DNA of 64,000 nt from Escherichia coli (GTDB lineage: Bacteria > Pseudomonadota > Gammaproteobacteria > Enterobacterales > Enterobacteriaceae). A model generated the notes under the pieces. It searched no databases. It saw only the letters and a list, made by a program, of their open reading frames with translations, and was not told the origin of the DNA. Positions 4,344-51,256 of the stretch are shown in pieces (positions within the stretch are counted from its first letter, which is position 1; each line of letters starts with the position of its first letter). The position numbers were made by a program, and so were the translations under genes. The DNA is taken from the NCBI RefSeq assembly GCF_016903815.1, contig NZ_CP069973.1; one strand, given 5' to 3'.

Positions 4344-5197
4344 ACGTGCTACTGGAACCCTTCAGCTATGAATATATGCTCAATGCGATGTGGGTCTCGG
4401 CGATGGTCGGCGGTCTCTGCGCTTTCCTGTCATGCTATCTGATGCTAAAAGGCTGGTCGCTGATTGGCGATGCGCTGTCGCACTCTATTGTCCCGGGTGT
4501 TGCGGGGGCATATATGCTGGGGCTTCCGTTTTCTCTGGGAGCCTTCTTTTCCGGCGGACTGGCAGCGGGCAGCATGCTGTTTCTTAACCAACGCACTCGC
4601 TTAAAAGAAGATGCCATCATCGGCCTGATCTTCTCCTCCTTTTTTGGCCTGGGGCTGTTTATGGTGTCATTGAACCCGACATCCGTGAACATTCAGACCA
4701 TCGTCCTAGGCAATATTCTGGCAATCGATCCGGCGGATATCCTGCAACTCACTATCATTGGCATTCTCTCGATCATCGTGCTTTTTTTCAAATGGAAAGA
4801 TCTTATGGTGACCTTTTTCGACGAGAATCACGCCCGTGCTATTGGATTGCATCCGGGCAGATTAAAAATCCTCTTCTTCACCCTGCTGTCGGTTTCGACC
4901 GTTGCGGCGCTGCAAACGGTTGGTGCCTTTCTGGTGATCTGTCTGGTGGTGACTCCCGGTGCAACAGCATGGTTGTTAACCGATCGTTTTCCCCGCCTGC
5001 TCATAATTGCTGTAACTATTGGCAGTGTAACCAGTTTCCTCGGCGCGTGGGTCAGTTACTTTCTGGACGGCGCGACAGGTGGAATCATCGTGGTGGCGCA
5101 GACACTGCTGTTTCTTTTAGCATTTGTATTTGCGCCCACCCATGGGCTTTTGGCAAATCGTCGGCGTGCGCATAAAGCGCTGGAGGATCGCTCATGA
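4340..5197 (+). CDS. sitC: Mn/Fe ABC transporter permease SitC
   Basis: 285-aa polytopic membrane protein, ABC-3 permease-like; 4-nt overlap with sitB. Confidence 0.85.
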
Positions 5198-33218: not shown

Positions 33219-33489
33219 GATGTTACCGTAGTATGTGAGTATCCATCGAATAGACACCAAGCAAAAAAGCTCCCGAAGGAGCCTTCATTTTCACTTTTTT
33301 AAATCCAACGACAGACGGCTGGCATTTAAGTATTGTGAAATATTATCAAATGTAATCATCATTGATTTACAAAAGATACATTTTGCCCCGAAAGGATTCA
33401 TGTCAGAAACATCAAAAGATGATGTTCTATACTGGGAACCATGACAACACGGGCATCTAAAGTGAATATGGTTTGTAATATTGTCTACC

Positions 33490-33702
33490 TCAAAGCGCCA
33501 CTACATGAACAGCGGCAGGACCTTTAGGTCCGTTCTCAATACCAAATTCAACTTCCTGATTCTCAGTTAATGTTTTGAAATCGTTGCTCTGAATTGCTGA
33601 GAAATGGACAAACACATCTTTGCTGCCATCTTTCGGCGTGATGAAACCAAAACCTTTTTCAGGGTTAAACCATTTCACTAAACCAGTCATTTTGTTAGAC
33701 AT
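33490..33702 (-). CDS. cspI: Cold shock protein CspI-like
   Basis: [23 protein letters not shown]... with RNP1 and RNP2 motifs. Confidence 0.85.
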
Positions 33703-34064
33703 AATTATTACCTTTTGAAGAAATTAGCCCTTGGGCAGAATGGTCCGAAAAAAAATATCAGAGAGAAAAACCAACAAGGAAATCTCAAGAGGTACAAATA
33801 ATAAAATTATAACAATGACTGCTTCAGATAAATTTGTAACAAACCAGAACACCATTAACGCATGATTAACCACCCATAGCAAGGATTACTTTTGTAAAGA
33901 AAAACACAGCAATGAAAGAATAGCTTTATTTATTAATAAAACGTGTCATTCTGATTAAGACCTTTTATCTTACCCTTAAGATTTCAGGAATTTTGGCTCA
34001 TGGAAGAGTCCTTTTTATTTAAATTTTACATTCCGCGATGTAAATGTTCCGATTTAATATTACC

Positions 34065-36119: not shown

Positions 36120-36810
36120 CTCTTACCAGCCGCGCCCTAACAGGCGCACACGATCTGACATTTGCATCCAACTTCGTTACTTACGGCCCGTAAACGGGCT
36201 GCCCGGATAGGGAATCGATAACTGCTCTCCCATTTTATCCTCTTCAAGCTGGTGCTTTATGTAATCCTGTATCTTCGCCGTGTTCTTACCCACTGTATCG
36301 ACGTAGTACCCTCTGCACCAGAACTCCCTGTTCCTGTATTTGAATTTCAAATCACCAAACTGCTCGTAAAGCATCAGACTGCTTTTCCCTTTCAGATATC
36401 CCATAAACCCGGATACGCTCATTTTGGGCGGGATCTCCACAAGCATATGGATATGATCTGCACAGCATTCAGCTTCCAGAATCCGTACGCTTTTCCACTC
36501 ACACAGCTTTCTCAAAATACTGCCTATTGCTCTACGCTTCTCTCTGTAGAACACCTGTCTTCGGTATTTTGGCGCAAAAACTATGTGATATTTACAGTTC
36601 CATCGGGTGTGCGCTAAGCTCTTTTCGTTCCCCATTGGGACCCCCTTTTGATTTCTTGTTTGACACTTGCAGTTGCCAGACCGCAAGGTGTTTTAACAAA
36701 TCAAAAGGGGTTTTAATAACTGGCTCAAAGCTGAAAGCTTTCCGGAACCCCCAGCCTAGCTGGGGGTTTTCTGTGCACAATAAAAAACCCGCCTGAGCGG
36801 GTTTGAGATT
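36120..36810 (-). mobile_element. IS200-like insertion sequence (approximate bounds)
   Basis: 152-aa Y1 transposase with hairpins upstream (acccccagcctagctgggggtttt, aacccgcctgagcgggttt); about 0.7 kb, typical of IS200. Confidence 0.55.
36177..36635 (-). CDS. tnpA: IS200/IS605-family transposase TnpA (Y1 HUH)
   Basis: MGNEKSLAHTRWNCKYHIVFAPKYRRQ...HIHMLVEIPPK...; HUH motif (HIHML) and catalytic Tyr region. Confidence 0.85.
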   Translation of the reverse strand: MGNEKSLAHTRWNCKYHIVFAPKYRRQVFYREKRRAIGSILRKLCEWKSVRILEAECCADHIHMLVEIPPKMSVSGFMGYLKGKSSLMLYEQFGDLKFKYRNREFWCRGYYVDTVGKNTAKIQDYIKHQLEEDKMGEQLSIPYPGSPFTGRK

Positions 36811-37085
36811 GTGGTGCTTTTTGTGGGAGTCATCCACTTACGCACTTTGTTTTGCCATGCCAGCAGTTAGCTTCTGCTGTAAAACTATTCATGCAGCAAA
36901 CCTGCACTTCACCACAATGGTTAGCATACTTTTCCTGATTAAGATTTTGCCAAATATGCTAGCCATTGTTTCATGTATTGGACCTCCTTACTTTTTATTA
37001 AAGAGATCCAATATTCACTACTCTGTCCGTATCTCTACTCAGGCATCAGCCTTCTTCGTTATCGTATACAGACGAGCGATGAATT

Positions 37086-37301
37086 TTAATCAGTAATGAT
37101 GACATTTGCTGCTGCAGGACCTTTAGCACCACTCTCTATAGAGAAGGTAACCTTTTGACCTTCAAATAAGGTTCGATAATTATCATTCTGAATCGCAGAA
37201 AAATGCACAAACACATCTTTACTACCATCAACAGGAGAAATAAAGCCGAAACCTTTATCAGCGTTAAACCATTTTACTAAACCAGTCATTTTATTTGACA
37301 T
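37086..37301 (-). CDS. cspB: Cold shock protein CspB-like
   Basis: [23 protein letters not shown]..., 71 aa. Confidence 0.85.
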
Positions 37302-37601
37302 TCTACATTCCTTAACTTGAGCCTTTCGGCATAAATGGTTTGCATAACAGAAACGACTTCGTACTTAATTGGAGAGACTCAAAGAAGGAATAAGTGAATA
37401 ACACCTGAAATGAGAACTGCTTTAGTAAACTACTTCGTATATCGTCTGTTCTTCAAACCGACGCAATCATTAACGCATAGTTGAACATATGAAGCAATGT
37501 TTATTTTAGACATCCAGCCATCTTCAACCCCATCAAAAAACTATAGCTTTCTTCAGGAACGTGTGTATAGTGCGCCAAGTTATCAGTATTAAGGAATTTT
37601 T

Positions 37602-40865: not shown

Positions 40866-41021
40866 TTACTCCTCAGGTTCGTAAGCTGTGAAGACAGCGA
40901 CCTCCGTCTGGCCGGTTCGGATTCGTACCTCGCAGAGGTCTTTCCTCGTTACCAGTGCCGTCACTATGACGGTTAAACAGATGACGATCAGGGCGATTAA
41001 CATCGCCTTTTGCTGCTTCAT
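40866..41021 (-). CDS. hokD: Hok-family toxin HokD (RelF)
   Basis: Minus-strand translation MKQQKAMLIALIVICLTVIVTALVTRKDLCEVRIRTGQTEVAVFTAYEPEE (51 aa), not in the ORF track. Confidence 0.85.
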   Translation of the reverse strand: MKQQKAMLIALIVICLTVIVTALVTRKDLCEVRIRTGQTEVAVFTAYEPEE

Positions 41022-42879: not shown

Positions 42880-44300
42880 CCCTATGAATGGATATGCACT
42901 CAACCGAATCGATCTTGGTTTCAATCTTTTTTATCGGGATCAGGCTTCTTTTTAGGTAACTTCGGGGGCTTAACTTGCTGATGACTTTGCGTTCGGCGCG
43001 TAAGCCAGGGATGGTCAGCTTTAGGTTTAACATAGTATTTTGAGCGTAAATCAATACGGGCATTATCCACTCGTTCATGGACACTCTTTTCATCATCCAG
43101 TGGTATAGGCTCCGGGCCATCAACATACTTTTCCCAGCCCAGCGCTTTCCCGTCATACAGAACGTTAATTTCACCGTCAAAGTTCTCGCATACAGTAACA
43201 ACCGAATGCCTAAGTCGATATCCCCGGCCCTCACTGCGTACCTGAAACGCACTGCTTTTGTACTGGAAAGTGAGATTTTTAGACAGAACGCGCTTCGCCT
43301 GTAGGCTGAAGATATAACCCAGTTCCTCTTCAGAATGGTGCACATCAAGATGAGCATTATCAGTAGTACGAGGCGACGTAGCGAACCGGTTGTTATAGGC
43401 TTCAATAAAGGTCGGCAACCATGCATTTGCTGTTTCAATATCACTGATATTCTGAAGCCGCATTTCTTTGACCAGCCTGTCCTGTAGTGTCTGATTGGCG
43501 CGCTCTACCCGCCCTTTTGCCTGCGGGCTGTTGGCATGGATTGGCTCGATGCCCAGTGTCTTTATCGCACGAGTGAACTGGGTCAGCTCACCTTCCCGCT
43601 CTGGGTTATTTACCCTGAATATACTGTGTCTATCAGAGTAGAGAGCGAGCGGTACGCCATGATCATTAAGGTAACCCCGGAGGGTTTCCATGTAAGCCCG
43701 GGTTGTTTCAGCAGGCACAAAACGCAACGCCATCAACGCACTGGTGGCATCATCAATGAAAACGATCAGTGTACATCTGGGGCCTCGATTTTCAAACCAG
43801 TCATGAGGTGAGCCATCAATCTGGATCAGTTCACCGTAAGATGGTCGTCGCATGCGGCGTTGATATATACGGGCAATTTTACGACGGCGTTCACGCCATA
43901 ACCCCTCTTCTATCATCCACTTTCTGAGAGTTTCAACGGATAAAGATAAACCGTGTATCTCGCGCAATTTTTCGCACGCAAACGTAGGTCCAAAATCAGC
44001 GTAACGGCCTTTGAGGAGTGAAATTACTGTTGCTCTGAATTCAGTAGAAAAGGAATTATTAGGACGCTTTCCACGTCGGTGGGAAACCAGACCAGAAGGC
44101 CCTTCATTTCTATACCGTTGCACCAGACGTTTAACCTGCCGAATAGAAATGCCAATGCGTGCCGCAGCTTGTTCCTGAATAATCTGAAGTCGGTGGAGTT
44201 CCTTATGACTCATCGTAACAGTCTCTTTGATCATGAAAAATCCCCCAGAGAATTGTCTGGGGACATTTTAGAATGGTTCAAAGGGGACATTACAGCTTGG
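42880..44300 (-). mobile_element. IS element with rve-type DDE transposase (IS481-family-like; ends not resolved)
   Basis: Single long transposase ORF; terminal inverted repeats could not be defined by eye. Confidence 0.4.
42921..44213 (-). CDS. DDE transposase, HTH plus integrase-core (rve) domain
   Basis: MSHKELHRLQIIQEQ... N-terminal HTH, central DDE-like core, Lys/Pro-rich tail. Confidence 0.75.
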   Translation of the reverse strand: MSHKELHRLQIIQEQAAARIGISIRQVKRLVQRYRNEGPSGLVSHRRGKRPNNSFSTEFRATVISLLKGRYADFGPTFACEKLREIHGLSLSVETLRKWMIEEGLWRERRRKIARIYQRRMRRPSYGELIQIDGSPHDWFENRGPRCTLIVFIDDATSALMALRFVPAETTRAYMETLRGYLNDHGVPLALYSDRHSIFRVNNPEREGELTQFTRAIKTLGIEPIHANSPQAKGRVERANQTLQDRLVKEMRLQNISDIETANAWLPTFIEAYNNRFATSPRTTDNAHLDVHHSEEELGYIFSLQAKRVLSKNLTFQYKSSAFQVRSEGRGYRLRHSVVTVCENFDGEINVLYDGKALGWEKYVDGPEPIPLDDEKSVHERVDNARIDLRSKYYVKPKADHPWLTRRTQSHQQVKPPKLPKKKPDPDKKD

Positions 44301-44717
44301 TGTTAACAATAGCCTGCTTCTCCGTGCCTTTCGGCACGTAAGAGGCTAACCTACATGTGTCTAGCATGAAATTGGCCTCAGATTAATGTTAAGCGTCTTG
44401 CAGGACGCGTAATGTTAACTGGGGCTTTTCTCTATCTGCCTTTGGTGTTCGTGCCCGAGGCAGATAGCCTCAAGCACCCGCCGTGATTCTACAAAAACAT
44501 TACCCACCTTTCCAGCAATTCACAACAACTCCATGCAAATAGTAAGTAGAATAATAAGTTATTAGTATTAGCAATTTACTTAGTTTCTAATTTGTGCCAA
44601 TGATTTTCATTTTTGCATGAAAAATACCTTAACATTTTATATTTACTTACTATTTGTAAGCCCCATCAGTTCTTTCTGATGGCGGCTGGTATTTCAGTTC
44701 CAGATATAGTATATGCT

Positions 44718-45746
44718 TTACGCCTTAATAGGGTTAATCACATTTCCGCTATCCGTACCATAGTATTTTTTTGTAGTCATGCCTTGTTTATAATAATCAT
44801 TTAACAGTTTGAGAAAGTTTCTTCCTTGCCTCTCATCTTCTATGACTAATTTACCATGCTCATTGGTCTTAAACTCTTCGTTCTGAAACATTTTTAGCAC
44901 ATCATTCATAGCTTGAACATCATTCTTTTCCAGAACCGTATGGTTACCTTTCTCAGCGATATGAGTGAGAATTTTTCTCAGTGATGGCTTATGAAGAATA
45001 GCTTGTTCAATAACATCTAAACCTTCAATAAGATCAAGTTCTTTAATTGTATTTAATGTTTTTTGTGCAGCTTCTGTAAACTCAACCTCCAAGCCTACAA
45101 TAGCCTCAAAACTTTTCTTATGAAATACATAAAATTGATCTTTTATATAAATACAATCGATTTTGTCATCAAAATTGACTGCGCTGCCATCAAATGATCT
45201 TAACTCTTTATCTGTTTTATCAAACAAAGCGAATACGCGCTGAGTCATATTTTGTGGTTCATTTGTTGTGACTTTCCCCCTGCTGATTTTTCGGAAAGAA
45301 TAAGTGACGTCAGCCCCCTTTTGGACTTTAATACAATAGGCCCACAAATCATTCTGAACCTCAGCAAGAGAGGTAAGTACAACTGGTTTATCATTCTTTA
45401 TATCGTTATTAATAACTTTTGAAAACGATATCGCGTTATTCATAGCATAGGCATAAATTTTATTATCAATATCATCATCAATAACAGTATGCTTTTTCAT
45501 CACAATATCATCTTTCGAAGCATGAGAAATAATCTGGTTTGATAAAGTATACTTAAAAAATTTAGCAATATCTGGAGCGATTGGAGCTTTAATGATTTTA
45601 AAATCGAATTTATCAACAACTCTTGCGGTTCTACTCATACCCGCTTTAAGATGTCTAGTAATGAAATACAACGATATTTTCGCCGCATCATCATCCTTAA
45701 GTTGCTCAGCATACTCTAATAATTCTTCAAGCTTTAACATTTTCAT
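44718..45746 (-). CDS. Soluble partner protein of candidate defense operon (KwaB-like by architecture, unverified)
   Basis: 342-aa Lys/Asp-rich AT-rich ORF; start overlaps the stop of the upstream membrane-protein gene (ATGA). Confidence 0.5.
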   Translation of the reverse strand: MKMLKLEELLEYAEQLKDDDAAKISLYFITRHLKAGMSRTARVVDKFDFKIIKAPIAPDIAKFFKYTLSNQIISHASKDDIVMKKHTVIDDDIDNKIYAYAMNNAISFSKVINNDIKNDKPVVLTSLAEVQNDLWAYCIKVQKGADVTYSFRKISRGKVTTNEPQNMTQRVFALFDKTDKELRSFDGSAVNFDDKIDCIYIKDQFYVFHKKSFEAIVGLEVEFTEAAQKTLNTIKELDLIEGLDVIEQAILHKPSLRKILTHIAEKGNHTVLEKNDVQAMNDVLKMFQNEEFKTNEHGKLVIEDERQGRNFLKLLNDYYKQGMTTKKYYGTDSGNVINPIKA

Positions 45747-46357
45747 TCCTTATGGGATTCAGCATAAAAAAGTTTTGGGCCCACGTCCTCAACATCAAGA
45801 AGATCATCTTCCTCCAAATACTTTGATTTAGTCAAAACCATACCAGTGCGTTTTTTGTCGCTTTCTAAATCCAAATATGTAACTTGATATAAAGTATAAT
45901 TAATACTTATTGTAGGATTTATAAGTATCATGCTTGAATTAATATATATTAAAGCCGTTACCGTTAACAATATTGCTATAGGTATAACATTAGTTAAAGT
46001 GGATAGATCCTGAAATACAAACGGAATTATATATGTAAAAAGATAGCTTATTGATTCATTGTTTTTATTTTCAATATCTATAACTCTTACAGTTCTACCA
46101 CTAGTGGCGCATCGACGTTTTATATTTTTTAAAAAAATTGTTAATCCTACAATACCAAATAATGATAATACACCAATGACACTGACCGCGCCAAAGTATT
46201 TAAAGAAAATAGTTAATGATTCAACACTTATACCTTTCCAATTTAAATAGCTTCTATAAGTATACAATTGCACAAAACACATGATAAAGAATAGGGGAAG
46301 GTATGACACTATAAATAGCGAAACTCTAGCACCTAAATGTAGTTTATTTACTCTCAT
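45743..46357 (-). CDS. Four-helix membrane protein of candidate defense operon (KwaA-like by architecture, unverified)
   Basis: 204-aa ORF with four hydrophobic stretches (about residues 12-32, 55-76, 103-115, 124-140) and an acidic C-terminal tail. Confidence 0.5.
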   Translation of the reverse strand: MRVNKLHLGARVSLFIVSYLPLFFIMCFVQLYTYRSYLNWKGISVESLTIFFKYFGAVSVIGVLSLFGIVGLTIFLKNIKRRCATSGRTVRVIDIENKNNESISYLFTYIIPFVFQDLSTLTNVIPIAILLTVTALIYINSSMILINPTISINYTLYQVTYLDLESDKKRTGMVLTKSKYLEEDDLLDVEDVGPKLFYAESHKE

Positions 46358-46565
46358 AACTACCCCACAGCCTACACGTCTAGTATTTTATGTTATTTCG
46401 AATAATTATGCATCAGATTACCATCCTACAATTGTGCATAAAACGAGCATTTTGCTGATTTTTCTGCGGATGCCTGAGACAGACAACCTCAAGCACCCGC
46501 AGCAATTTTACTTAACTCCCGCTACCTCGCCAATATGAAATCAATAAGAAAGGTGCTCCATAAAA

Positions 46566-47252
46566 TCACTCCTTCTCTTCTTTATCGTAGTGGAGTTGAC
46601 CAATTTTGATAAGAGGGCGTCCCTGAGATTTGCGGTGTAGATTGGTATCGCGCAGAGAATACACACAGCCACAATATTCCTGCTGATAGAATTTTTCGCG
46701 CTTGCTGATTTCAATCATGCGGGACGAGCCGCCCTGCTTGCGCCAGTTATAATCCCAGTACACCATGCCCGGATAATGCGCGACGGCTCGCCGCCCACAG
46801 TCGTTAACCTGCTGCATATTTTTCCAGCGTGAAATGCCCAGTGAACTGCTGATCACACTGAAACCATTTTCAGCAGCGTACAGCGCTGTCCGCTCAAAAC
46901 GCATGTCAAAACACATGGTACAACGGATCCCCCTCTCGGGCTCCCATTCCATTCCTTTGGCACGTTCAAACCAGTTGTCTGTGTCGTAATCAGCATCAAT
47001 AAATGGCACGCCGTGTTGTTCAGCAAAGCGAATATTCTCATCCTTACGAATTAAATACTCTTTCTGAGGATGAATGTTCGGGTTGTAGAAAAAGATGGTA
47101 TAGTCGATTCTCGAGGCCTGAAGTGCCTCCATCACTTCACCGGAACATGGAGCACAGCAAGAGTGCAGTAGTAGTTTGTTTGCCCCGTTTGGGAGCTCCA
47201 ATTTAGGCCGTTTGAAATCAGCAATAGTCATAAATATTTTTATTGGGGTCAT
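46566..47252 (-). CDS. DUF208 / QueH-like protein (putative epoxyqueuosine reductase family)
   Basis: [11 protein letters not shown] and FFYNPNIHP motifs plus additional Cys (CTMC, CGC) as recalled for the QueH/DUF208 family. Confidence 0.6.
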
Positions 47253-47433
47253 AAAAATAGCACAGAGTGTGGCATCAGAGCAGGGCTATCGGGAATAGAT
47301 GTCTAAATCTGGTAATATCTGCTTTTGACGCATAGCAGACAACCACGCTAGCTCAATCCTGTGCCGTGAAAATGTCAATTCACATCTGAACTAATGCTCT
47401 TTAATCTAGTTACGTCTATAAATAACGAAAATT

Positions 47434-47832
47434 TCACTGATAAAATGCCAGTATGCGCTGCATAACTTCGCTCTTCCGGCACTCACAGCAAATTATGTTT
47501 TGGTGCCTGTCATAACGACGTATTTCTCCGTCAGGTAATGACCAGATAAGGTCCGGATCAACCACAGATGTTTTCTTCACCTTTGCCCTCGAGAGTTTTT
47601 TGCGGGCGTTTTGCCAGTCCTTACGAGCCTGTTCAGACGGGAATAACCCGTAGCCAGAGTTATATACATCACCACTGGCAACCAGCTCTCTGGCGAGAAC
47701 GCTCATCAGATATCTTGTCGCACCTGTCTTGGCTTCCAGTTGCCGTAACGTCTCGCGCCCACTCCGGCGTACTAGCTCAACAACCTGCCCCTTGATTTTT
47801 TCCCGCTCTTCTTGTGTAAAAACTTTTGCCAC
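47434..47832 (-). CDS. Hypothetical prophage protein
   Basis: 132-aa basic ORF downstream of the replication initiator, with a CCEC motif; no family recognised. Confidence 0.4.
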   Translation of the reverse strand: MAKVFTQEEREKIKGQVVELVRRSGRETLRQLEAKTGATRYLMSVLARELVASGDVYNSGYGLFPSEQARKDWQNARKKLSRAKVKKTSVVDPDLIWSLPDGEIRRYDRHQNIICCECRKSEVMQRILAFYQ

Positions 47833-47872
47833 AAGTCCCCCTTAAAATTACCTCATGACCTGAAATCAAAAC

Positions 47873-48838
47873 TTATCCTCTGAAACCAGGCGGAATTTCT
47901 GTATCCGGTTCAGAAATATGATTAACACAACGCTGTACAGGTGAACGCCCCAGGCGGATGACCAGTTCGTCCCATTTTTCGCGGAGCTTTGACGGGCTCA
48001 TGATGTTTTTTACCCAGAATGGATCCCGCTGTACCCGACCAAACATTTCACAAATTTGTCTGTGACTTCTGCCATCCAGCATCCGCATTGTGCGCACATC
48101 ATTGGCCCAGACAGTCCAGTTAGGCTCTTTTGGTCGCATGATCTCGCCATCATCACTGGCGGCCTGTTCGTAGAGACCCACGATCCGCCCCCATATCCAC
48201 TGCGCACACGCCAGATCCTCCTGGCTACCCCACTGGCGTTTTTTCGCACTAAACACAACTGCGCCAGGGTGCCGGATTAAAAAATCCTGTTCAGCCGTCT
48301 GCGGGTCCGGTTGCGAAGCTTCCGGACGAAAAGTGTTTTTATTCTCTGTAGTAATCTCTGTTGTATTCTCTGTAGGATCATCGGGCCATTTTGACCCGAT
48401 GACATTGGGTCGTTTTGAACCAATGGAGCGTTTCATTTTGACCTCTTCCATCGTGTCATTTTGACCTGATGGAGCGGCGCATTTTGAACCGATGGATTCG
48501 CTCAATTTGCCATCATCTAAAAGCTCGCTCCCATAGTTAATCGTGTAGAAATTGGTCATATCGCGCTTTGATTTATTGAGCTTTTCACAACGCAAAAGCC
48601 CCAGCGTTTTCAGACTTGCAAACGCGCGCTTTAACGTTGACTCTGACCAGAATGGGAACTGTTCCAGCCATTGTTCCGTTGTGTTGTAAATCCAGCGAAC
48701 ACCATCACATTCCATGCCGGAATTGGTATCTCTCAACCAGTAATGCAACTGCTGCAACACAATGGCTTCATTTAAGCCAATCTTCATCGCAAGCTGTGTG
48801 TTTATAACCAGTGGGCGTTCAGCAAAAAGAAGGCTCAT
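47873..48838 (-). CDS. Replication initiator (lambda O-like replisome organizer) containing ori iterons
   Basis: N-terminal replisome-organizer-like region; internal 23-bp iterons encode repeated SIGSK motifs; start uncertain (48892 or 48838). Confidence 0.65.
   Translation of the reverse strand: MSLLFAERPLVINTQLAMKIGLNEAIVLQQLHYWLRDTNSGMECDGVRWIYNTTEQWLEQFPFWSESTLKRAFASLKTLGLLRCEKLNKSKRDMTNFYTINYGSELLDDGKLSESIGSKCAAPSGQNDTMEEVKMKRSIGSKRPNVIGSKWPDDPTENTTEITTENKNTFRPEASQPDPQTAEQDFLIRHPGAVVFSAKKRQWGSQEDLACAQWIWGRIVGLYEQAASDDGEIMRPKEPNWTVWANDVRTMRMLDGRSHRQICEMFGRVQRDPFWVKNIMSPSKLREKWDELVIRLGRSPVQRCVNHISEPDTEIPPGFRG
48385..48500. repeat. Origin iterons: five direct repeats at 23-bp spacing
   Basis: Core (a/g)ttttga(c/a)c at 48388, 48412, 48435, 48458 and 48481, inside the initiator gene as in lambda ori. 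Confidence 0.65.
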
Positions 48839-49340
48839 AATTCCATCCAGCTTTTTGTTGGTATTGCTGTCGATACGCAAGCTTGAAAGCAATTGCTTTT
48901 TCTATAAGTTCGTCAGTTTCACGATCCACTACGGCAGGATCAGCAAAAAGCAGTCCGGACTCCACCACATCGCCATATTCTTTGTTTAACCCGGCGATCA
49001 TGCACGTGATGCTTTTTCCGTCAGTAATTTCACGATACAACCTGAAATCACTAATCCGGATAGCCTCCATAATCGCAGGCACTAGCGCCGTGAACTTTTC
49101 ACGCTTATCCCTGGTGTCGATAGCCTTCCAGCGTTCGAATATCTTCACTCGATTAACGCCAAGCGCTCGCTGATCAACCGCGCCACCTTCATCTGTGACA
49201 CGCTGAACATCGATGTTCGGGCGCTCTTTCAAAGCCCAGAATGCTTCAGTGATTAATATCGTCGCCTGCTCCTGTGTCATTCCTGGTCGACATATCCAGG
49301 CATCCAGAGCCTCACGAGCCTGTTCAGGAGTGATTTTCAT
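48819..49340 (-). CDS. Hypothetical early-region protein (YdaT-position)
   Basis: 173-aa ORF directly downstream of the cro-like dicC. Confidence 0.45.
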   Translation of the reverse strand: MKITPEQAREALDAWICRPGMTQEQATILITEAFWALKERPNIDVQRVTDEGGAVDQRALGVNRVKIFERWKAIDTRDKREKFTALVPAIMEAIRISDFRLYREITDGKSITCMIAGLNKEYGDVVESGLLFADPAVVDRETDELIEKAIAFKLAYRQQYQQKAGWNYEPSFC

Positions 49341-49554
49341 TGTTCAACCGCCCCGCCCGCTTCGTCTTACGATATTCATCATAAACTTTGGGATCATACT
49401 GAAGCTCCCCGCCAGATGCCTCCTGTAGACGCATCGCGCGACCTTCAGGAACCAGTATCCCCCAAGCAGCAACACTTGCCAGCCTCACTCCTGCGGCATT
49501 GGCAAGCTTTGTTTTGCTGCCAAAAAAAGTAATTGCGTCAACTTTAAGCATCAA
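49324..49554 (-). CDS. dicC: Cro-like repressor DicC
   Basis: 76-aa ORF ...FFGSKTKLANAAGVRLASVAAW...LVPEGRAMRLQEASGGELQYDPKVYDEY...; divergent from dicA. Confidence 0.85.
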   Translation of the reverse strand: MMLKVDAITFFGSKTKLANAAGVRLASVAAWGILVPEGRAMRLQEASGGELQYDPKVYDEYRKTKRAGRLNNENHS

Positions 49555-49563
49555 AGCCCCCTC

Positions 49564-49582
49564 TTGTTAGACTTTTCTAACA
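49564..49582. promoter_or_regulatory. Operator palindrome in the dicC-dicA divergent promoter region
   Basis: ttgttaga-cttt-tctaaca inverted repeat. Confidence 0.6.
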
Positions 49583-49631
49583 TTATTGTGCGCGGGATAC
49601 CTAAGTCAAGAAAAATTAGAATTACCTAACT

Positions 49632-50039
49632 ATGGATACAAGAACCCTGGGCCAGCGAGTTCTGGCGCGACGAAAAGAATTACGCTTAACACAACGAGAA
49701 GCCGCGCGCCTCGCTGGAGTTGCTCACGTCACAATTTCACAATGGGAAAGAGACGAAACCCAGCCAGTCGGAAAACGATTGTTTGCTTTAGCGGATGCTC
49801 TGAAGTGCTCACCTACATGGCTAATGTTTGGTGACGAAGACAAGGCACCAGTGCCTGCACAAGAACTTCATGTGGAAACAGAGCTAACTCCCAACCACAA
49901 AGAATTGATCGAATTATTCGATGCTCTTCCATCTTCCGAGCAGGAAGCCTTGCTGTCTGAAATGCGCGCAAGAGTAGAAAACTTCAACAAACTCTTCGAA
50001 GAAATGCTTAAAGCGCGTAAAAATAAATCAATAAAATAA
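49632..50039 (+). CDS. dicA: HTH-XRE repressor DicA
   Basis: 135-aa ORF ...LTQREAARLAGVAHVTISQWERDETQPVGKRLFALADALKCSPTWLMFGDED... Confidence 0.9.
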   Translation: MDTRTLGQRVLARRKELRLTQREAARLAGVAHVTISQWERDETQPVGKRLFALADALKCSPTWLMFGDEDKAPVPAQELHVETELTPNHKELIELFDALPSSEQEALLSEMRARVENFNKLFEEMLKARKNKSIK

Positions 50040-51198: not shown

Positions 51199-51256
51199 TT
51201 TTCTGGTGACGTTTGGCGGTATCAGTTTTACTCCGTGACTGCTCTGCCGCCGTTTT
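51199..51256 (+). ncRNA. dicF: DicF small regulatory RNA
   Basis: tttctggtgacgtttggcggtatcagttttactccgtgactgctctgccgcc followed by a T-run; matches the DicF sequence from memory. Confidence 0.8.

Follow-up and report, generated by a model that had tools for sequence, protein, structure and literature searches.

The window analysed here, a stretch of 64,000 nucleotides of Escherichia coli DNA, carries within a lambdoid prophage a gene for QueH, which is most likely a captured phage auxiliary gene whose product, judging by its sequence and modelled structure, would convert epoxyqueuosine (oQ) to queuosine (Q) in host tRNA without B12. We give odds of roughly three in four to the full reading, namely that the protein is a functional canonical QueH, captured from an Enterobacterales chromosome, carried as cargo and making Q without B12. 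The identification as QueH is not in itself new, since the RefSeq name is already correct, and the enzyme itself is ordinary. What appears to be undescribed is the occurrence of queH on phages and, with them, in about a fifth of E. coli genomes: literature searches combining QueH or epoxyqueuosine reductase with phage or prophage returned no report of a phage-borne QueH.

The open reading frame of 228 amino acids at 46566..47252 on the minus strand, from which the original prediction of a QueH-like (DUF208) protein was made, is real, and its translation contains both of the motifs on which that prediction relied, an 11-residue motif at residues 27-37 and FFYNPNIHP at residues 54-62. Apart from one IS1, the window is 99.99% identical to the record of E. 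coli strain 7/2 (NZ_CP023820.1), where PGAP gives the product the name "epoxyqueuosine reductase QueH" (WP_021523102.1) and places its start at the second in-frame ATG, Met8, corresponding to window position 47231. The coding sequence counted from this codon has 221 amino acids (46566..47231, minus strand) and is identified by the ORF, the Pfam and PDB matches, the AF2 model and the PGAP name, while the alternative in-frame start at 47252 yields the 228-residue version. Since no obvious Shine-Dalgarno sequence precedes either ATG, and homologues begin to align with the 228-residue ORF at about residue 10-14, the start may be at 47231 or at 47252. None of the NCBIfam models matched the prophage QueH, and the PGAP name must therefore derive from another rule. 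The IS1 that distinguishes the two records lies between ydfO and gnsB in strain 7/2 (1822243-1822940 of NZ_CP023820.1) and is absent from the window (at about 32650), so that the window belongs to a very near relative of strain 7/2 and not to that strain.

The same gene is found, in the same gene order, in the isolated E. coli phage HannyBb (PP925841), where it is labelled 'hypothetical protein'. The corresponding PHROGs family, phrog_3217 (188 positions), bears the label 'unknown function' and matches the ORF only from Met41 onwards (residues 41-228, window 46566-47132); an SD-like sequence, GGTGAAGTG, precedes this methionine. In phage annotations of queH the start is probably set at an internal Met, which leaves out the CCAPC metal-binding motif; the protein itself would not be truncated.

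The assignment to the QueH/DUF208 family has been upheld by the Pfam profile, by sequence similarity to a protein of known structure, by the cysteine ligands and by the predicted fold. Pfam-A yields a single match, to QueH (PF02677), with an i-Evalue of 4e-65 and a score of 219.6, in which residues 27-201 of the query cover positions 1-174 of the 175 in the model, and phmmer against the PDB retrieves Thermotoga maritima QueH (7lc5) at E=2.8e-22. The conservation of the Fe-S ligands was examined in an alignment of the prophage protein with T. maritima QueH and 85 diverse cluster representatives, which were taken from a search of a library of 1.84 billion proteins with 4,727 matches at E≤0.001. 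In it Cys32, Cys33, Cys111, Cys114, Cys194 and Cys196 of the prophage protein (228-residue numbering) align with Cys9, Cys10, Cys87, Cys90, Cys169 and Cys171 of the T. maritima enzyme, and the QueH Cys columns are invariant in an alignment of 40 sequences. At the seventh ligand position T. maritima QueH has Asp13, and the E. coli prophage protein has a cysteine, Cys36. We considered this substitution as the mark of a divergent subfamily and rejected the idea: cysteine is the norm of the family, being found in 70 of the 74 sequences without a gap at this column, and the sole Asp is that of T. maritima, the outlier. PDB entries of QueH are named as C9S and D13N mutants, which indicates that both residues were targeted by the depositors.

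An AF2 model of the prophage protein, built on the 40-sequence alignment, has a pLDDT of 95.4 and a pTM of 0.91 and displays the adenine-nucleotide alpha-hydrolase-like core of the QueH fold. Its five best matches in the PDB are all T. maritima QueH (rmsd 1.3-2.0 Å, target TM 0.90-0.92), and the next-best folds, those of TtuA-type PP-loop enzymes, are weaker by 10 orders of magnitude. With the structurally characterised T. maritima QueH (7lc5, 7lc7, 9deu) the prophage protein thus shares the fold (rmsd 1.3 Å, TM 0.92), 30% identity and six cysteines; it differs, beyond the seventh ligand position, in having about 20 extra residues at each end. As far as alignments and a predicted structure can tell, every hallmark of QueH that is testable in silico is present in the prophage protein.

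What could be the source of this gene? The closest proteins in a search of 5.8 billion sequences are the QueH proteins of Erwinia, Gibbsiella, Providencia, Proteus, Photorhabdus, Pantoea, Rahnella, Serratia and other Enterobacterales, and the three relatives that were compared, those of Erwinia, Providencia and Photorhabdus, are 79-85% identical to the prophage protein over the full length. These chromosomal proteins (DUF208, PF02677, COG1636; Erwinia sp. P7711, Providencia rettgeri, Photorhabdus spp.) have the same Cys motifs and the same N- and C-terminal extensions, and the prophage protein has no added domain in comparison with them. The two groups differ in genomic setting: the chromosomal genes occupy housekeeping neighbourhoods, between purL and glrK-glrR-glnB in Erwinia, between tmcA and an ABC transporter with purC in Providencia, and adjoining benE in Photorhabdus, whereas the prophage gene lies between a Ren-like/DUF977 gene and hok/sok. 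The simplest reading of these similarities is that a phage captured a housekeeping queH from the chromosome of some other Enterobacterales bacterium; a lambdoid lineage would have taken up the gene and would now carry it, in early-right orientation, as a module of about 880 bp between the Ren-like gene and hok/sok. The idea that the gene brought its native promoter along was rejected, the prophage leader showing no similarity to the DNA upstream of queH in Erwinia, Providencia or Photorhabdus. Several 'phage' records with QueH matches have the look of contaminating host DNA or of wrongly binned assemblies and not of a gene truly carried by a phage; among them are the 328-379 kb 'Acinetobacter phage MD-2021a' records (QueH 78.5% identical) and the 283-kb 'Staphylococcus phage SA 1306 Kay'.

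The host element of queH is a Qin-like lambdoid prophage. One of its sides contains head, tail and lysis genes, csp genes, homologues of ydfT and ydfU, rem, hokD, relBE and flxA, and the other contains a Cro-like regulator, YdaT, an O-like replication protein, the Ren-like/DUF977 gene, dicB, DicF, an exonuclease and an integrase. Having the early-right gene orientation, queH is situated directly downstream of the early-right genes, after the Ren-like/DUF977 gene (47434..47832, minus strand; phrog_142 at 4.4e-44, DUF977 in PGAP), the regular left-hand neighbour of queH in lambdoid prophages, which is not part of the QueH function. Flank alignments of the window with four other contexts delimit the module on both sides. 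Its 5' edge is a conserved leader of about 115 nt (47232..47346, minus strand), which is kept even in HannyBb, whose DNA further upstream is unrelated, and its 3' edge is a conserved trailer of about 95 nt (46470..46565, minus strand), which ends in an 8-bp hairpin at about 46472-46494 without a U-run. Beyond this hairpin the sequence diverges at once and continues, depending on the genome, into Kiwa, hok/sok or a restriction-modification (R-M) system. By these alignments queH is a self-contained cargo module of about 880 bp that borders a variable slot rich in defence systems. In HannyBb the Ren-like gene and queH are separated by an ORF of 68 amino acids annotated as 'DNA methyltransferase' (HannyBb 4762-4968), which marks where recombination has bounded the QueH module on its 5' side; it looks like the remnant of a full SAM-dependent methyltransferase that fills the slot in other E. 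coli prophages.

The candidate defence cassette that had been noticed beside queH is, by PADLOC profiles, unambiguously Kiwa, with KwaA at 45743-46357 (minus strand; PDLC00212, E=1.3e-101) and KwaB at 44718-45746 (minus strand; PDLC00223, E=5.1e-158). A functional link between queH and this cassette is contradicted by the data. Most genomes with queH are devoid of Kiwa, the joint arrangement (at least 80% cover of a 4.5-kb query) occurring in 153 complete E. coli genomes versus 1,094 with queH, and the GC content differs sharply, at 0.317 in Kiwa and 0.48 in queH, with 0.48-0.55 in the prophage and 0.53 in the host. The possibility that queH is a component of Kiwa was accordingly rejected on co-occurrence, composition and module boundaries. 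The GC content of the Kiwa genes and their high proportion of U-ending Asn, Asp, His and Tyr (NAU) codons, which reaches 86% (0.857), are both far from the values of prophage and host, which suggests that Kiwa was recently acquired from a distant AT-rich source.

The layout of the slot was further scored in viral contigs from IMG/VR, using the best 80 of the 163 with a relative. DUF977 lies upstream of queH in 72 of these 80, and among the 69 of them with enough downstream sequence the element directly 3' of queH is hok/sok in 54, Dcm/NgoMIV in 9 and Kiwa in 6. Bacterial genomes present the same alternatives: hokD directly follows queH in JJ1887 and OSUCMP42NDM, and a Dcm methyltransferase with an NgoMIV-family endonuclease follows it in O157:H7 Z570 and O103:H2 strain 129. 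On this comparison of arrangements, Kiwa and the Dcm/NgoMIV R-M system are separate insertions between queH and hok/sok. The slot after DUF977 in genomes without queH is filled by retron Ec67, AIPR, DUF4209, methyltransferases, an alpha/beta hydrolase or other cargo. The whole interval from Ren-like/DUF977 to hok/sok/DUF968 (window 44400-47433) is a cargo hotspot in lambdoid prophages, which also holds, by genome, Kiwa, Dcm with NgoMIV R-M, DUF5677, an sce7726-family protein or SAM methyltransferases.

What would such an enzyme contribute to a cell which already possesses one? E. coli's own enzyme for the reduction of oQ is indeed QueG, as had been presumed: at a threshold of at least 95% identity, 5,425 of 5,426 complete genomes have queG, among them that of the matching host strain 7/2, where it is intact and lies beside nnr-tsaE-amiB-mutL. 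The full Q pathway is present in E. coli (PMC9508795; PMC5372724), and its QueG (YjeS) performs the same reaction under the same EC number as QueH, from oQ-tRNA to Q-tRNA (PMC5372724). QueH is a non-orthologous alternative to QueG (PMC6461909; PMC5372724); the E. coli QueG is not homologous to it and is cobamide-dependent (PMC11841063), and queG is a core gene whereas queH is accessory. Deletion of queG left growth unchanged in the one condition reported (PMC11841063).

The prophage QueH, as an iron-sulfur and, by family, cobalamin-independent enzyme, would convert oQ to Q at position 34 of the host tRNA-Asn, tRNA-Asp, tRNA-His and tRNA-Tyr and, because the host QueG needs a cobamide, would let a lysogen or an infected cell complete Q without B12. 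E. coli is not known to synthesise cobamides, B12 included, de novo, and oQ accumulates when B12 is missing. DUF208 genes reportedly complement an E. coli queG mutant, in work ascribed to Zallot and colleagues in 2017, who are also said to have found no cobalamin in the recombinant protein and to have judged that few organisms possess both enzymes. The argument for a selective benefit would be weakened by the usual availability of cobamides in the gut, and we know of no phenotype that distinguishes oQ from Q in E. coli.

The presence of queH on a prophage, which the original prediction held to be unexpected, is confirmed as such but is less of a surprise, as 1,094 of 5,426 complete E. coli genomes (about 20%) carry queH and RefSeq already names QueH. 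The carriers include O157:H7, O103:H2 and ExPEC isolates. Nei-Gojobori estimates of dN/dS for the allele of the window are 0.063 against the common allele WP_000150294.1 (dS 0.107) and 0.067 against the queH of HannyBb (dS 0.229). The ORF is intact in 79 of the 80 best contigs among the 163 from IMG/VR, and the gene is retained across differing replication modules and differing downstream cargo. Prophage queH is maintained under purifying selection.

These observations bear directly on the idea that queH is a non-functional passenger, kept through linkage to a successful prophage backbone. Redundancy with the core gene queG and the lack of a phenotype known to us would agree with a passenger, but a dN/dS of about 0.06 at appreciable dS, the almost uniformly intact reading frames among the best 80 of 163 viral contigs and the persistence of the gene in changing surroundings make this quite improbable. 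A role of the enzyme in defence or counter-defence is a further reading: the state of Q-family modification of tRNA could protect from, or sensitise to, tRNA-targeting nucleases, or QueH could cooperate with adjacent defence systems, and the gene does sit at the edge of a slot holding Kiwa, Dcm/NgoMIV R-M, retron Ec67, AIPR, DUF4209 and methyltransferases. PADLOC, however, has no match for QueH itself; 54 of 69 viral contigs (among the best 80 of 163) go straight from queH to hok/sok with no defence system; and QueH looks like an orthologue of a housekeeping enzyme, copied unmodified and lacking any extra domain. Kiwa, for its part, is complete as a two-gene system without queH, and both occur together in just 153 of the 1,094 queH genomes, so that we regard a defensive role as unlikely. 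The original prediction had also allowed for an action of QueH on 7-deazaguanine in DNA, serving modification of the phage genome or its self-protection. Phages do use enzymes of the Q pathway for DNA modification, yet homologues of QueA, QueG and QueH were absent from the viruses analysed in a survey of viral Q-pathway genes (PMC6884629). Such a role would need a DpdA/TGT-like transglycosylase and genes for preQ0 synthesis, and PGAP, in the record that is 99.99% identical to the window, annotates no DpdA/TGT-like protein, QueC, QueD, QueE or FolE anywhere in the prophage, which leaves the DNA role unsupported. The phage clusters for 7-deazaguanine DNA modification (DpdA with FolE, QueD, QueE, QueC and others) are likewise made of phage-borne genes of the queuosine/archaeosine pathway, but they act before insertion of the base and on DNA, whereas queH encodes the last, tRNA-specific step and stands alone. 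We know of no occurrence of oQ in DNA and consider an action of QueH there to be extremely improbable.

A different question is whether the same enzyme serves the lytic cycle rather than the lysogen. After induction, queH would be transcribed as part of the early-right operon (cro, YdaT, O, Ren, QueH), and the conversion of oQ to Q would tune the translation of phage or cargo genes; we view this as possible, though on the doubtful side. The gene directly follows the replication genes, downstream and in their orientation, and no promoter or terminator is predicted to separate it from them: a scan of the minus strand between DUF977 and queH found no sigma-70 consensus promoter, and a terminator scan found no terminator there and did not report the trailer hairpin. 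The consensus scans for promoters and terminators yielded sites no more numerous than in shuffled sequence. On the other hand, the conserved 115-nt leader could hold a promoter of queH's own, and a candidate extended -10 element, TGcTATTTT, was spotted by eye just upstream of the two ATGs. Transcription may come from pR read-through, which would mean expression on induction, or from a weak promoter of its own, which would mean expression in the lysogen. The leader is not unusually structured (folding z-score -1.2), and no upstream riboswitch (preQ1, cobalamin) or other structured RNA was found, Rfam in E-value mode over 44300-49700 returning sok alone. A parallel for the lytic role is offered by a 2026 preprint on Shewanella, where phage infection induces queG and Q rises at the expense of oQ; this response was, however, read as a benefit to the host (10.64898/2026.03.05.709803). 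By analogy from a different organism, the Shewanella result shows that the step from oQ to Q can be regulated during infection. As to the translational effect itself, the AT-rich Kiwa cargo next door is very rich in NAU codons (0.857), but the late structural genes of the prophage are barely enriched relative to 42 host genes (0.553 versus 0.522, the early genes having 0.566), and any benefit through codon usage would therefore be weak. A codon-usage rationale for queH was set aside, the NAU excess over host genes being too small to argue from.

Whichever phase of the phage life cycle it serves, a captured QueH would have consequences for its hosts. Provided that QueH is active, the final step of queuosine synthesis is covered by two non-homologous enzymes in about 20% of E. 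coli strains, and neither a queG knockout nor B12 starvation would give oQ accumulation of the K-12 type in strains with queH, which would affect studies of oQ and Q in natural isolates. The prophage would also be a clear case of a temperate phage with an auxiliary gene for tRNA modification, and HannyBb with and without queH would provide a simple genetic handle on the physiological difference between oQ and Q. One may go further and suppose that lambdoid phages control the final maturation of queuosine, uncoupling the Q status of tRNA from the cobamide supply in about one-fifth of strains, with oQ versus Q thereby becoming a trait that phages manipulate, that varies among strains and that affects fitness or immunity; this is a long shot in our estimation. 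If it were true, phage control of Q could be of consequence in cells that have lost the BtuB receptor or that live where cobamides are scarce, and it could alter the translation of NAU-rich acquired genes, such as the Kiwa cargo (86% NAU), as well as susceptibility to tRNA-targeting toxins.

Several smaller features of the prophage were recorded alongside. Immediately downstream of KwaB, the sok antisense RNA of the hok/sok locus was located, as a full-length match, at 44308..44479 on the minus strand (Rfam RF01794, 105.6 bits). No intact hok ORF was found beside this match, and the locus appears to have been cut by the adjacent ISNCY element (ORF 42921-44234, minus strand); a second hokD, which is intact, lies at 40866-41021 beside relBE. 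Further Rfam matches above the gathering threshold comprise two cspA-type thermoregulator leaders of the cspI and cspB homologues (33463-33848 and 37070-37462, both on the minus strand), the STnc490 sRNA (36645-36768, minus strand) and DicF (51201-51252, plus strand), all of which are typical features of the Qin prophage.
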